From Candidatus Hydrogenedentota bacterium (GTDB lineage Bacteria > Hydrogenedentota > Hydrogenedentia > Hydrogenedentales > SLHB01): 29,575 nt of DNA. Position numbers: made by a program. The stretch spans positions 1-29,575 of the forward strand of contig JARKSN010000013.1 in the NCBI GenBank assembly GCA_029974275.1. The letters run 5' to 3'. This document shows positions 14,801 through 20,800 of the stretch, one piece after another (within the stretch, counting starts at the first letter, position 1; every line of letters starts with the position of its first letter).

Positions 14801-17800
14801 GTCCCGTATGTTCCGAATCTTTATCGACAGATAGAGAATCGAAAATCCCTATCTTCTCTTCTTGCTGTACATAACACGGCGCCGACGCCGCGCATTTCGC
14901 CGTGCGTGATCGAGGCCGTCACGCTTGCGCGACGGCATACGCGTCGGATTGAACGAGCGCATACCACGATCTACTATGAAGCAGAAAGACAAAAGCGCCA
15001 CGCCAGGAAACCGAGGCCCCCACGGAGGAGGAGGATATCTGTATGAGCACATCCGCGGACCACGATCCTGTCTCCGACCCCGAAGACCTTCCCCATAGAC
15101 CATCTCTTCTGTCGGTGCGCGGTTTCGAAACAATCGCCGAAGGGATCGCCCACGACATCAACAATCTCATGACCACAATCCTGGGAAGCGCCGCCCTGAT
15201 TCGAACGGAAACCGGCCATCGCCATACAGTAACCCCGCTGCTGGATAGCATTGAACACGCGGCCGAAACCGCCGCTTCCCGAACGCGACAACTCCTGGAA
15301 TTCACTCGCGAGCAATCCAACCGCGCCGAGTGCGTTAGCCTCAACGCCATTGTCTACCACGCATTGCTGGCCGAGGAGCGAAAACTCGCTCCACGCATCC
15401 GGATTCATCGATACATCGATCCTGATTTGCCAAGGCTTGTCTCCACGAACCATGCCGGAATCGCCGAATTGACTCTGGCTCTGGCGGCAAACGCCGTGGA
15501 AGCCATTCACGGCGAGGGACGCGTCATCATCCGCACCCGTTTCGTGATCGAGGAGCCTTCTGATGCCGAGACGTCGGGGTTGCCCTCAGGAGCCTACGCA
15601 CTGTTGACGGTCGAAGACAACGGAGACGGAATGTCCCCGGACATATTGGCGCATGTATTCGACGCAGCATTTTCCACCAAGCCCGGACACAAGGGCATGG
15701 GCCTCACCCAAGCCCGGGAGACCGTCGATGCGGCCGGCGGCCGCATCGTCATTACCAGTTCCGTGGGCCATGGCACATTATGCCAAGCGTATTTGCCCGC
15801 GTTGGCCGCGAATCATGTCGCTCCCCCATCCGTCCCCTCCGACATGCCACGCGGCAACGAAACGGTCCTGCTCGTCGACGACGAACGCATTATCCTGGAA
15901 GTGACCCGCGAAACCCTCGGACGGCTCGGATACCGCGTGCTCACCGCCCGGAACGGCAAGGAAGCCGTCGACATTGCCCAAAACCATCCAGGGCCCATTC
16001 ACATTGCCCTTTTGGACATGGCCATGCCCATCATGGGAGGCGCCGAAGCGTATCCGCTCTTGCAAGCGGCACGACCCGACATGAAGGTGATCGTGTGCAC
16101 CGGCTTTGACCCCGACATCGCCCCGCCCCTCATAGCGGAAACCGGTTCGAACGCATATCTTGTCAAGCCTTTCCGGCCCACAACGTTAGCCCAGGAAATA
16201 CGCCGCGTGCTCGATACACGGGAATGATCCAGGGAGTCTCGCGCCGCCGGATGAAATCTTGGATATTTAGGGATTTCCCCGCGCAGATGCCCTTGAAGCC
16301 TTCCGGACAAGCGTTTTGAAGGCTGCGTCCTTGCGGAGAGAAGCCAGGTCCGCGTCGGTTTTCGCTTTCGCGATCAAGGTCTTGTCAATGGAAAACGCTT
16401 GTTCCAGGAGGTCTAGCGCCTCTTTTTTCCGGAGCTGCAAGCTATAGAGGCATGCCAGATTATAGTAAGGGGCAGGGTGGTTTTTCCCCAACGCAATGGC
16501 AGTTCGGTATGCCTGTTCGGCTTCTTCGTACTTGCCCTGAGAAACGAGCAGATTCGCCAAATTGTTGTGGGGAGCCATCTCGTCCGGAGCAAGTTCCACC
16601 GCCTTCCGGGCATAGGGCTCGGCTTCCTCAAAGCGGTCCAAGCGGCGCAACAGGATGGCAAGATCGTTGTGAGGACGGCTCCATCCAGGGTCGAGTTTGA
16701 TGGCTCGAAGGAAGGCCTCCTCGGCCTCGTCATTCCGTTCAAGCTCGTGCAGCACGACTCCCAGTCCCGTATACGGCCAACTCCAGTTTGGACTCAGGAG
16801 GATCGCCTCTCGATACGCCCGTTCCGAAATCCGAAAATCGCGGGATGCATACGCGAAAAGCCCCAAGGCAAACCACGTTTCGCTCGTGCGCACCGTCCCG
16901 GTCCGGGCCAGTTCCGCCACGGAGGCGACGGCGGCGCGCGTGGCCTCCTCGCGAGCATACGGGTCATGGCGCAAACGAGAGAACATGTCGTCCAGCAAGG
17001 CAGCGGTCGCGAGATCCGTTGCGGGAAAACGGCGCATATGGTCCACGTATTCCTGAACGGCAAGATAGAGAATCGCCGCCACACAAAACGCCAGCACGGC
17101 GTAAAAGGTTCTACGTGACCTTGTCATGGCGCCAGTATATCCGCTGCTCCAATCAGAGTCATGCGCACGAATCTGGAACGAGACGCCTGCCGTTCCCCTT
17201 CAACGCGCCGACAAAACATTTTTCTTGACACGCGCCGGAAAACGTGGTTCAATAAATCTGAAAATAGATTCAGCACAAGGGTGGTATCATGACAAGACAA
17301 CTTACCAAGCGACAAAGCGCAATACTGCAGTATGTGGCGGCGAATATTCGCGAGAAGGGATTTCCGCCGACGATTGCGGAGATTGGCGCGCAATTCGCCA
17401 TTGCCTCGACCAATGGCGTGAATGATCATTTGGTGGCGTTGGAGCGGAAGGGATACATCAGGCGTTCTTCGAAGGCGCGATCAATACAGGTGACGGACAA
17501 GGCCGCCTTGGACCTGTACCGCGATCATGTGGGCACATTGCCCCTCGTCGGCCGGATTGCCGCGGGAACGCCGCTGTTGGCGTCTGAAAACATCGAGGAT
17601 GAAGTAGCCGTGGATCCGGCGCTTGTCAAGGACCGATCGTATTGCCTGCGCGTGCAAGGCGACAGCATGATAGAGGACGGGATTCTTGACGGCGACATCA
17701 TCGTGGTAGATCAGGACAAGGAAGCTTCGCCGGGGTCCGTGGTGGTGGCGCTTGTTGGCGAAGAGGCCACCGTCAAGCATTTTCATCCACACGACAACCT

Positions 17801-20800
17801 GATCGAGCTTCGTCCCGCCAATGCTACGTTGCGTTCTTTGTTCTTCGATCCCGATGAAGTGCGTTTGCAGGGCGTTGTCGTCGCGCTGCAGCGAACGCTG
17901 GAATGATGGCGCGACGCCACGTCGTTATCGATGGGGCGCGAAGGAATAGAGGATGGAGAAAACCGGGGAGGGTCGCATCGCGTGAGCGTCATGTTGCCGC
18001 TGTTCCCTTTGCAGCTTGTGGCGTTTCCGGGCGAAACGCTGAAGCTGCATATTTTTGAACCGCGCTACCTCCAGCTTATTGGCGAATGCCGCGACGAAGG
18101 CATCGCGTTTGGCATACCGCCCTATGCCGACGGGGTGATGGAATATGGAACGGAAGTCGTTTTGCACACCATTGTTGCGGCACATCCTTCTGGAGAAATG
18201 GACATTCTGGTCGAGGGAAGACGCGTTTTTCATCTCGATACGTTTCAAAGGTTCTTTCCGGGAAAATCATATCCCGGAGGATCGGTGACATGGCTCGACA
18301 ACGACGCATCCTGCGCCGCGGACACGGTTCGCGAACTGGTCGATTGCTACAACCGCTTTCATGCCTTGCTCAAAACCGGACATGAGCGCGAAGCCTTCGA
18401 CGGGCCCCATCTATCCTTTCAGGTGGCCCACGAGATCGGCATGACCCTGGAGCAAAAAGTCCGCCTGTTGGCCATTTCCCATGAGGAAGAGCGCCAACGT
18501 CTCGTAATCGCGCATCTCCGCCAAGCCGCCGCGCTGCTTCAGGCAGCCGAAGAAACCCAACGCCATGTCCGCAAGAACGGCCATTTCAAGCGTTTCCCTC
18601 CATTGGACATTTAGGCAATTCCCCTGTCGGTCACGCTTTTGCGTTCTGGTACGTCATGTGCAAGGAGGCAATGACGACGGAAATCATGGCGGTTGATCGA
18701 TGGACCCTCCCGGAGACATAGTAAGGTATGCAGAAAGGAGTAATGCGTCATGTCACATAGACAAGGTTTTACGTTGATTGAATTGCTGGTTGTTATCGCC
18801 ATTATCGCCATTCTGGCGGCAATATTGCTACCGGCGCTTGCCCGAGCGCGAGAGGCGGCCCGGCGGGCCGTTTGCGCGAACAACCTGAAGCAGATGGGGT
18901 TGACCTTCAAGATGTACGCCGACGAGGCCCGCGGCGATTTCCCCGCCATGTCGGACTACTTGATCGGCGATTCGCATCCCACCTCCCCGAACCCAACGTA
19001 CTGGAACAATTCGGCGAGTCCAGACATGGAAGTCTTGTTCCCCGATTATCTGAACGATTACCGGATTCTCGCGTGTCCGTCAGACAGCGGCGTGCCCGGC
19101 ATTCCCGCCGCAAAGGTTCTCCCCCTGGAAGAAGGAATGGAGAAAATAACGTCCGCTATTCTCTCCGGTTCCGCCAAACCCCTATGCATCACGGCGCATC
19201 TTACTCCGGTGCGTTCCTATATCTACCTTGGATTCGTCACGCTAACGCCGTGTCAAGGAAGCGTCGCCTTCAATTCGTGGCTGAAGTCCGGCCAGGAAGT
19301 GTTTCTGGGCGATACGGACTATGAATCGCATCGCCTGCCTGTTGGGCCAGATTGTCCATACCAGGATTCGTGGCGCATCTATGACCGCATCCAGGTGGGT
19401 GTCGAAAAAGGCTGGATGGATGCCGCGGGGAACGTGTCGACGGCGTGGCGTCAAGGCATACAGGCGCTCGAGGAAGACGATACGCGGCTGCCGATGACGC
19501 TCTATCGTCTTCGAGAAGGCGCAGAGCGGTTTTTGATCACCGACATCAACAACCCGGCGTCCGCCGCGCGCGCACAAAGTTATATTCCCGTCATGTGGGA
19601 CGTTTGGGCAGCGGCTGCCGCGCCCCCGGAGGTCGAGGATCCAACCGTTTGGGAAACGATCCGCGGCGCGCGCATCACCAACCATATTCCGGGAGGCGGC
19701 AACGTGTTGTTCATGGATTGCCATGTCGAGTTCATCAAATTCGGCGTGCGGTATCCCATGCGCGATGACGACGCCAACACGGGGCGCAAGTTTTCCAAGG
19801 ACCTCTCCCGGGGCGTTCTCGGATAAAGAAGGTTTTGCGAAAGAGTGCGGCCATGGCGAATCCGATTAGAGCGCCTCGGCTTATTTTCCCCATCGCGTTG
19901 GAAACGCGGCGTAGCCTGCCAGGTTGAAGGGCTGGGTGGCTTGAGTCCAGGACAGGCCGCATTCAGAAAGCAGTTTTCCCGCCTGGGTCGCTGTTTTGAT
20001 GGTTTCGGCAATGCCCGGAATGATCGTGGCCATGCTGCCATCTTCCGGGATGCGCGCCGTGAATTCGGGCGGAACGCTCGCGATGCCGCCTGCAGACTCG
20101 TAGGCCCCGTTGGAGAGAAGCAGAAAACCCTCTGCTTCGGCAAGGGGCATAAGCACGTCTTTTTCAACGCCTTGTAAGACGAGCGTCAGACGCCTGAGCA
20201 AGGCTTCCGTCAACGATGCGTCGAGCAAGGGAAGCATGTGTTCGTCTTGGATGATCATGCCGCGTTCGTCGCTCAACAAGGCGGTCCCCTTTTCGCCGAT
20301 GACAGTCCACATGCGTGACGCTGGGATGTCGGAGGCTTGGGTCAAATGAATGCATACTTCCACGCCGCTGTCCATGCGTGCGCGCAGACAGTTTGTGTCT
20401 TCGCCTTCGATGTCGGCCGCCCGGTACAGTTCGGCCTGCACCGACAAGGGGCGCGCGAAGGACTCGGGGGTTGTCCCCGCGAGAAACGAAGTCATATTCA
20501 GAACATGCGCGCAGGCATTGTTCATCGGTCCGTCCAGCACCCACGTCCCATTCAGACTTAGTTTGCCTGCCCAAGCGTTGCGCGCATAGTAGGCATCGGT
20601 CCGGCGCCAGCGCGCTTCCGCGCGAACGGCCATCACTTTTCCGAGAACTCCTTCGCATAGGCGTTGTTTCAGGCGAATCGCGTCAGGCCGGGCCATGTCG
20701 TGAAACCCCACAGCGCATTGCAAACCGGCGCGCTGCCGGATGGCTTCGAGATCGCGCAGATGTTGTATGCAAACAACGGGGGGTTTTTCGAGAAATAGGT

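Follow-up and report, generated by a model that had tools for sequence, protein, structure and literature searches.

Does the palindrome that precedes lexA in a Candidatus Hydrogenedentota genome act as the SOS box of this phylum, and if so, which genes would it control and how does it relate to the boxes of other bacteria? The survey's finding from which we started had read STGAA-N6-TTCAG as the LexA binding site of Hydrogenedentota, and in our literature search no SOS box or regulon described for the phylum was found. The window analyzed here is a 29,575-nt stretch of contig JARKSN010000013.1 (C159), and the features surrounding lexA are collected in Table 1. Judged by its family score, its Ala-Gly cleavage site and its Ser-Lys dyad, the lexA product is an intact, canonical LexA repressor: it also scores above the PF01726 cut-off, consists of an N-terminal winged helix and an S24 peptidase domain and, when aligned to the E. 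coli and P. aeruginosa LexA chains, has its cleavage site at A92-G93 and the catalytic residues at S126 and K163. The box is a perfect CTGAA-N6-TTCAG situated 15 nt before the lexA start. The lexA promoter was not called by a strict promoter scanner; a TTGAC-like hexamer ending 27 nt 5' of the SOS box recurs in 41 of 81 lexA loci.

Table 1. Features at the lexA locus of the window (positions on JARKSN010000013.1)
Feature	Position	Strand	Basis or remark
Divergent TPR-repeat gene, outside the system	16267..17127	-	No match adjoining lexA in 29 relatives' loci
Predicted -35 hexamer TTGACA of the lexA promoter	17225..17230	+	Sequence; relatives' consensus TTGACA at the same place
Predicted extended -10 TG-n-TTCAAT, 17-nt spacer	17245..17253	+	Inferred from sequence; relatives' consensus there GTGGTTTAATAT
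SOS box CTGAAAATAGATTCAG (CTGAA-N6-TTCAG), across the predicted lexA transcription start	17258..17273	.	Pattern scan and PWM
Possible ribosome-binding site AAGGGTGG	17277..17284	+	Inferred from sequence
lexA, 205 aa	17289..17906	+	TIGR00498, 194.9 bits vs cut-off 110.95
Codon of helix-2 Ala30 (E. coli Ala29)	17376..17378	+	Alignment
Recognition-helix codons, S40-T-N-G-V-N-D-H-L48	17406..17432	+	Alignment
Lon N-terminal substrate-binding domain protein, 75 nt 3' of lexA	17982..18614	+	PF02190

Exactly three perfect copies of STGAA-N6-TTCAG occur in the 4.38 Mb of this genome, and they stand, as had been claimed, before lexA (C159:17258), recA (C80:36520) and dinB (C280:30489). A count of three is at chance level (2.25 expected; other spacer lengths give 0–8), so that only the position of the copies is informative, and the number itself was dropped as evidence. 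The fully palindromic form STGAA-N6-TTCAS adds two further copies (C222:14213, within a called CDS, and C285:1018), while 141 copies carry one mismatch. With a position weight matrix (PWM) built from 106 training sites of relatives only (minimum score 13.8 bits), the lexA box was the best match of the genome (22.4 bits), the top four being lexA, recA twice and dinB. The second recA site that the survey had listed is present at C80:36397 with one mismatch, and it is this copy, not the perfect one, that occupies the position conserved in relatives; the perfect copy is the distal one, 14 nt upstream of the -35 of a tRNA-Gly gene that runs divergently. The reported lack of the site at uvrABC, recN and ruv was reproduced for uvrA, uvrB, uvrC, recN and ruvA of this genome (best match 3–4 mismatches within 250 nt upstream, no PWM score > 0.9 within 2 kb), as was its lack at a second lexA on contig C167. 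Other PWM matches of 10–17 bits, scanned in this genome only, include C158:54218 (in a CDS), C210:252 (behind convergent genes), trpF and nrdD, for which no regulon membership is claimed.

Loci from relatives were best-scoring or hand-picked (91 of the 154 lexA matches and 70 of the 128 recA matches), and the resulting counts are not independent because the genomes are related. A site with ≤ 1 mismatch to STGAA-N6-TTCAS was found upstream in 81 of the 83 main-type lexA loci (12 of 13 families) and in 65/70 recA loci, the latter figure counting G025 as a miss although a perfect site was seen there in other scans; the survey's own counts at the two genes agree with these independent ones. The recA genes of G113, G134 and G002 have no ≤ 1-mismatch site despite main-type LexA in these genomes. 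De novo, the top palindrome was TGAA-N6-TTCA (78/83 lexA and 59/70 recA upstream regions), position 4 is A in 80/81 lexA sites, and both half-sites are fixed in Hydrogenedentota. For comparison, uvrA and recN were counted as controls together with windows placed farther upstream, and the strict pattern gave 161 matches vs 27 for the reversed pattern (41 genomes, summed by hand). Going by these loci, the motif goes together with the LexA protein type: none of the eight other-type lexA genes has the site, and in G001, where the search gave no LexA of the main type, the palindrome is missing from recA, mrfA and the helicase described below, and a CGAA-N7-CGAA repeat like the one before one of its lexA genes takes its place.

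A dyad with fixed spacer conserved before lexA and recA is what is expected of a LexA operator, and together with the placement in promoters this supports the survey's reading. Very probably (roughly 90%), the main Hydrogenedentota LexA uses STGAA-N6-TTCAS, with its AT-rich spacer, as its operator, and this estimate is held jointly for the proposed regulon of lexA, recA, dinB (often dinB-dnaE2), mrfA-mrfB and, in most genomes, a Hel308-like helicase, giving a sharply defined predicted box and regulon for a poorly known phylum. In the predicted promoters the site fills the -35/-10 spacer (helicase), covers the -10 (mrfA) or lies at the start site (lexA, dinB, recA), i.e., it overlaps or adjoins the predicted RNA polymerase site in positions of the repressor type. 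From known LexA biology we infer binding, repression and induction at the site: a LexA dimer would sit on the palindrome with one recognition helix per half-site and block RNA polymerase, and upon DNA damage RecA filaments would trigger its self-cleavage at A92-G93 by S126 and K163, by which the regulon genes would be released. The one RNA run that a search turned up contains 0.07 of the sequence words, in contig form only.

This putative regulon is wider than the small one proposed by the survey, including mrfA-mrfB in this genome and more genes across the phylum; the listing of lexA, recA and dinB stood, while an archaeal-type repair helicase marked by the site in relatives had been omitted. 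Sites with ≤ 1 mismatch precede dinB in 22/30 loci, and dnaE2 in 14/29 directly or 22/29 if up to 1.5 kb upstream is counted, mostly before dinB; at least two TIGR03916 radical-SAM genes also belong to the predicted regulon across the phylum. By the same measure uvrA (2/26 loci) and recN (1/30) appear to be outside it, and in this genome also uvrB, uvrC and ruvA. For mrfA the site was found in 24/30 loci vs 1/28 in the control window, but since it overlaps the extended -10, part of this conservation may be promoter constraint; in more distant mrfA loci it was present in only 6/11, and mrfAB would be controlled through the weaker variant CTGAT-N6-TTCAG. MrfA has MZB and HRQ1 winged-helix domains and is followed by an RNase_H_2 exonuclease gene (mrfB), by which MrfA-MrfB of this genome can be likened to B. 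subtilis MrfAB (PMC13705206).

The Hel308-like helicase gene, single-copy and found in 123 of 135 genomes of the phylum but not in this one, has a ≤ 1-mismatch site in 28/30 loci vs 0/30 in the control window. Archaeal Hel308 unwinds forked DNA in the 3'-5' direction. With archaeal Hel308/Ski2-like helicases the protein has the DEAD, Helicase_C and archaeal domain 4 in common, in a fitting order, to which a C-terminal OmpR/PhoB-type winged helix (PF00486) is added in Hydrogenedentota. Against the curated Hel308 models (NF002654, NF040935) it reached 245–307 bits vs cut-offs of 887–1216, in a scan that covered residues 1–483 of 867. Its assignment to the defence protein HamB was not favoured (129 bits, much below the Hel308 models; single-copy and in most genomes). 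This near-universal helicase is a candidate damage-induced repair enzyme of the phylum, and LexA control is likewise predicted for MrfAB.

The likeness to the SOS box of Myxococcus xanthus, reportedly first described by Campoy in 2003, had already been noticed by the survey and extends to geometry and recognition helix: STNGVNDHL is found in 53/83 main-type Hydrogenedentota LexA and, with all nine residues, in Myxococcota LexA including M. xanthus. In gel shifts, M. xanthus LexA binds a 16-bp site of CT...-N6-TTCAG geometry, given as CTRHAMRYBYGTTCAGS, and the direct targets there were lexA, recA2 and pafBC-cyaA, with uvrA and recN placed outside the regulon, as in Hydrogenedentota (PMC9705874). 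The same source describes a two-base variant at recN that LexA does not bind, so that near-matches can be inactive, and much DNA-damage induction that is LexA-independent. The 16-bp frame and the CTRHA-N6-TTCAG geometry are common to both groups, and the lexA site of this genome departs from the published consensus in three spacer positions only. Thus, it is a serious possibility, at somewhat less than even odds, that the specificity does not differ from that of Myxococcus LexA, with the symmetry arising from selection for tight sites and no change in the protein-DNA code, and the imperfect, Myxococcus-like left halves of two lexA sites (L049, L086) would fit this; the box would then be merely a new occurrence of a known motif. 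However, both halves are symmetric and fixed in Hydrogenedentota, whereas Myxococcus has a strong right and a loose left half, and the inner G before TTCAG is present in only 8/81 lexA and 12/53 recA sites vs 99/109 sites of a helix scan (mostly Myxococcota). The DNA-binding domain is 51–60% identical to 19 of the 20 LexA proteins compared from that scan, and the helix-2 position of E. coli Ala29 is Ala or Leu in Hydrogenedentota but Arg in Myxococcota and Bacillota LexA (Arg in 0/83 main-type Hydrogenedentota LexA vs 107/120 helix-scan loci). The predicted regulon also differs from the direct M. xanthus targets in having dinB, dnaE2, mrfAB and the Hel308-like helicase. By these comparisons the box of Hydrogenedentota is a Myxococcus-type site in symmetric form, with the inner C:G pair lost. 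For motif change in evolution, LexA is the standard example among repressors, and the two LexA groups, alike in recognition helix and unlike in consensus sites, would form a clean pair for studying such a shift in specificity. In a quick LexA tree, from which we draw no phylogenetic claim, Hydrogenedentota LexA grouped with E. coli in one branch (SH-aLRT 92, the latter on a long branch) and Myxococcota were not placed as sister.

By 2021, 17 LexA binding motifs were known (PMC8565304). The Gram-positive (Cheo) box, CGAAC-N4-GTTCG or GAAC-N4-GTTC (PMC2248561, PMC3323433), has the GAA-N6-TTC core and its spacing in common with the Hydrogenedentota site, but its outer bases are CG in place of STG/CAS, its LexA helix reads SSSTVHGHL, and the inner C:G pair that is free here (C at position 6 in 14/81, G at position 11 in 8/81 lexA sites) is part of that motif. 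With the E. coli box, CTGT-N8-ACAG (PMC3323433), the CTG-N10-CAG frame and an AT-rich middle are shared, and three CTG-N10-CAG sites were found upstream of E. coli lexA by sequence scan; Ser39, Asn41 and Ala29 of E. coli LexA are kept and Glu45 is replaced by Asp. The two systems differ in positions 4–5 (AA here vs TA), in a DNA-binding domain that is only 38% identical, and in uvrA and recN not belonging to the Hydrogenedentota regulon. CTGT/ACAG halves were seen in several dinB sites and in 4/6 G077 sites examined, and the full CTGT-N8-ACAG once (L372). The SOS regulons worked out by comparative genomics for Balneolaeota (PMC7739468) and Bacteroidetes (PMC8565304) are, as presented there, likewise small and made up of lexA, recA, translesion polymerases, a helicase and a radical-SAM gene, with other motifs that were gel-shift tested, whereas the Hydrogenedentota box is a prediction from sequence. 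Tentatively, and with the odds rather against the whole of it, the box could stand, fully symmetric, midway between the Gram-positive and the E. coli box, uniting GAA-N6-TTC with CTG-N10-CAG; the LexA that reads it would combine a helix 3 of Myxococcus type with a helix 2 like that of E. coli, and a single Arg-to-Ala change would have freed the inner C:G pair. The main conserved repair output would be an as yet undescribed Hel308-like helicase of bacteria that carries a DNA-binding tail, together with MrfAB, not Uvr, RecN or Ruv, and the helicase would stay under LexA even where type and box are swapped (G001).

The survey had also counted an integrase beside tRNA-Met as a regulon member, which we consider improbable. 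Its site at C158:66195 (CTGAAACCGGTTTCAA) has one mismatch and lies 83 nt before the integrase start, and LexA control of integrases is known in other systems (PMC3323433), but with its GC-rich spacer it scores 8.4 bits, below every training site, and none of the 17 valid homologues has such a site, not even one that is 75% identical and whose upstream region can be aligned (25 loci; five without N-terminus, L532 with its start off the locus and this genome were left out). Naming this gene was selective: this genome has 144 sites with ≤ 1 mismatch, and 34 of them lie outside CDS and within 250 nt of a start. The upstream stretch carries direct repeats that vary between elements and may be att-arm-like. 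The label of prophage did not hold either: the adjoining genes (an AlbA/RecG-C/Fic-like protein, a radical-SAM protein, helicase fragments and a second integrase fragment) resemble a genomic island, and no phage genes were seen among these neighbours, for which no phage library was searched.

It is very unlikely that the palindrome is bound by another damage regulator or by a second LexA. The LexA-independent induction in M. xanthus (PMC9705874) and the additional lexA on C167 would leave room for such a binder, the assignment to main LexA being predicted from sequence, but the site is best kept at main lexA and absent at all other-type lexA genes, most genomes have a single LexA match, the helix matches that of a LexA with a proven site of the same shape, and in G001 LexA type and site are lost together. 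That the motif is only promoter architecture or AT-rich composition can practically be dismissed, for although its three genome copies are a chance number and sites overlap promoter elements, its distance from the -35 takes three different values, so that it is not a fixed promoter element, it is missing from uvrA and recN upstream regions, and the reversed pattern is six times rarer.

Downstream of lexA no terminator was called before the Lon-domain gene, which had no match adjoining lexA in 29 relatives' loci, and in this genome the gene may be transcribed by read-through from lexA.

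The box STGAA-N6-TTCAS, a candidate LexA operator (SOS box), is real and sharply defined, and we put the probability that the main LexA binds it at roughly 0.9, considering the site, its conservation, the predicted promoter overlap, an intact repressor and the link between motif and protein type. At lexA in the window a perfect copy is present, as the survey had claimed, and the alignment of the encoded protein shows an intact cleavage site (A92-G93) and dyad (S126/K163). The predicted promoter elements would place the lexA transcription start within the box, while a strict promoter scanner made no call here. 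Following established LexA biology, as outlined in PMC3323433, a LexA dimer would sit on the box and repress the target genes, and RecA would trigger LexA cleavage.

Features of the lexA locus in the window and the box at mrfA-mrfB on contig C127
Feature	Position	Remarks
Predicted -35, TTGACA	17225-17230	read from sequence
Predicted extended -10, TG-n-TTCAAT	17245-17253	read from sequence
SOS box CTGAAAATAGATTCAG	17258-17273	15 nt upstream of lexA; sequence
lexA, 205 aa	17289-17906	above LexA family cut-off
Weaker box CTGATGTTATATTCAG	C127:12554	over -10 of mrfA-mrfB; 12.7 bits (PWM)

LexA was matched in 125 and RecA in 123 of the 135 Hydrogenedentota genomes compared. From 154 lexA matches 91 loci were sampled (the 30 top-scoring ones, the second copy of this genome on contig C167, and 60 chosen to represent families and divergent copies), and from 128 recA matches 70 (the 30 best and 40 picked). 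Helix 3, independently of the motif, served to class the LexA proteins as 83 of the main type (STNGVNDHL in 53 of them) and 8 others. Without a prior pattern, the top palindrome was TGAA-N6-TTCA (78/83 main-type lexA, 59/70 recA). STGAA-N6-TTCAS was perfect at 76/83 main-type lexA loci and had at most one mismatch at 81/83, in 12 of 13 families, was absent from all eight other-type loci, and with mis-called starts corrected reached 55/70 and 65/70 at recA, figures that are counts and not statistical tests, as the genomes are related. The left half is preferentially CTGAA at lexA and GTGAA at recA, the spacer is AT-rich, and in 41 genomes the strict pattern gave 161 matches vs. 27 for its reversed control. 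A second dyad, TGACA-N14-TGTCA, occurred in 10 of the 70 recA upstream regions (L097-L166) and may represent two divergent -35 elements. One record titled as an archaeon (L217), probably mislabelled, has a perfect box at a lexA of the Hydrogenedentota type.

A second LexA type, with helix SS[LPV]ATVH[KEQ]HL, was found in G033, G001, G002, G085, and G116 (L050-L054). Direct repeats TTCG-N7-TTCG lie over the -35/-10 of 5/8 other-type lexA genes vs. 2/153 other upstream regions, recur in 60/72 metagenome relatives (L579-L658), and head a lexA-dinB-dnaE2 run in G002 (contig C25); they are probably kin of the Acidobacteria/alphaproteobacterial repeat GTTC-N7-GTTC. A single genome, G001, is a natural control tying the box to the LexA type: no main-type LexA was found (best E 1e-35), the box is absent at recA, mrfA, and the helicase gene, and the helicase promoter (L662, G001:C22) carries CGAA-N7-CGAA, a repeat that also precedes one lexA gene of that genome, possibly a case of regulon rewiring. 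In G077, with the LexA helix STNAARDHL (nearer to E. coli SPNAAEEHL), CTGT or ACAG halves occur in 4/6 examined sites, including one full E. coli-type box (L089, L372, L497, L574, L659, L660), and the recA and mrfA sites are ordinary. The second lexA of this genome (L002, C167:3133-3780) has neither an STGAA box, which the survey also found to be lacking, nor a TTCG repeat upstream; it lies behind a serine-recombinase gene cluster and unknown genes, in what looks like a mobile element, and its helix is SHASAHGQV, with a similar copy in G025 (L055).

The likeness to the Myxococcus box proposed by the survey holds for the helix STNGVNDHL, but not for the inner G and the loose left half. A scan of genome contigs for this helix yielded at least 120 loci, and among the matches listed approximately 72 of 80 titled rows were Myxococcota/'Deltaproteobacteria' (M. 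xanthus included) and 3 Hydrogenedentota; since the scan selects on the helix, its identity there is a given, and other phyla may carry it. G precedes TTCAG in 99/109 anchored sites (at least 118 loci with enough upstream DNA, ~6 rows being Hydrogenedentota-type), in contrast to 8/81 at Hydrogenedentota lexA, and the lexA sites of the scan combine a strong right half with a loose left one, whereas in Hydrogenedentota both are fixed. At position 29 of helix 2 (E. coli numbering), 107/120 listed scan loci and Bacillota have Arg, E. coli has Ala, and 0/83 Hydrogenedentota proteins have Arg; from this one contrast between two groups we hypothesize that the residue reads the inner pair. The DNA-binding domain of the window LexA shares 51–60% identity with 19/20 helix-scan LexA, 37–48% with Bacillota/Actinomycetota and 38% with E. 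coli; the peptidase domain has no such gap between groups, and the branching of a quick LexA tree did not settle descent. The Myxococcus box was reportedly regarded by Mazon (2004) as a step between the Gram-positive and E. coli boxes. The Hydrogenedentota box holds the Gram-positive core GAA-N6-TTC within the E. coli frame CTG-N10-CAG, motifs as given in PMC2248561 and PMC3323433, and its LexA keeps Asn41, a residue that in E. coli touches the operator (PMC5999292). For M. xanthus, PMC9705874 gives the box CTRHAMRYBYGTTCAGS and reports gel shifts by LexA at lexA and recA2, a weak one at pafBC, and none at recN. The Hydrogenedentota box would act like the Myxococcus box, yet it lacks one of the features that define the latter. 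Phylum-specific SOS boxes are a known type of result (PMC7739468, PMC8565304); as far as searched, this one is new for Hydrogenedentota, given that, as in the survey, nothing relevant on LexA of Hydrogenedentota or on a TGAA-N SOS motif was found in the literature searched, most subscription papers and regulon databases as well as supplements lying outside its scope.

In this genome (4.38 Mb, 342 contigs), STGAA-N6-TTCAG has three perfect copies, upstream of lexA, recA, and dinB as previously claimed, and 141 one-mismatch copies; 2.25 perfect copies are expected by chance (other spacer lengths give 0–8), so only the location of the three is non-random. Genes were predicted with an own hexamer model (3612 genes), and a PWM trained on 106 sites, all from relatives, ranked highest lexA (22.4 bits), the distal recA site (20.2), dinB (19.7), and the proximal recA site (17.4). 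The latter, the second recA site of the survey, has the position conserved in relatives; two sites occur at 3/70 recA loci. Within C80:36520-36670 (L004:3521-3671), the perfect distal site may also touch a divergent tRNA-Gly(CCC) promoter, as it lies 14 nt before its -35. No box was found upstream of uvrA, uvrB, uvrC, recN, or ruvA of this genome, which agrees with the survey.

As regulon members lexA, recA, and dinB stand, but the site at mrfA-mrfB, a MZB helicase followed by an RNase_H_2 exonuclease (domain search), had been overlooked. Among the 30 closest loci 24 retain it (1/28 in a control window), as do 6/11 more distant ones; it is partly an extended -10, yet the CTGA and CAG flanks are also conserved. 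The paper on MrfAB that was consulted describes this repair pair without LexA control. The integrase beside tRNA-Met (C158:66195), also placed under the box by the survey, was rejected because its GC-spacer site scores 8.4 bits, under every training site, and the box is absent at 17/17 valid homologous loci. Homologous integrases occur in 23/135 genomes, tRNA-Met adjoining 12/16 loci scanned; tandem direct repeats of ~9 nt between the two (L005:6190-6260, L521-L543), varying in letters among elements but not in arrangement, probably serve this integrase family as att-arm sites.

Around strict-pattern matches, 70 loci were inspected (30 returned, 40 selected from the list), and besides lexA and recA several genes recurred: one for a Hel308/Ski2-like helicase at 9 loci, a second Pol III alpha gene, taken to be dnaE2, at 5, dinB at 3, and a radical-SAM gene (TIGR03916) at 2; many further matches fell within CDS or before unrelated genes. 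The helicase (~867 aa; DEAD, Helicase_C, archaeal domain 4, C-terminal PF00486 winged helix) is present in 123/135 genomes, with no match in this one. Its promoter carries the box in 28/30 loci (17 perfect; control 0/30), where it typically takes up the spacer from TTGACA to TATAAT, and in 7/8 more distant ones. The box was also found at dinB in 22/30 loci and directly upstream of dnaE2 in 14/29 (22/29 counting sites ≤ 1.5 kb upstream, mostly before dinB), at uvrA in 2/26 (four loci without N-terminus left out) and at recN in 1/30. Nothing relevant on a LexA-controlled bacterial Hel308/Ski2-like helicase was found within the open literature searched; this helicase and the symmetric, bridging form of the box are what makes the result of interest. 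Two genomes rated 100% complete (G000, G087) have no helicase match, and G087 has no LexA match, yet a perfect recA box. In G052, G053, and G054 of genus g53 (L355, L356, L359), a perfect box stands between divergent genes for a sulfatase and a secreted protein, possibly conserved by chance, as these genomes are AT-richer (control counts 2–4). Perfect boxes also lie just upstream of TcmP (TIGR04474) genes in G061 and G026 (L306, L345).
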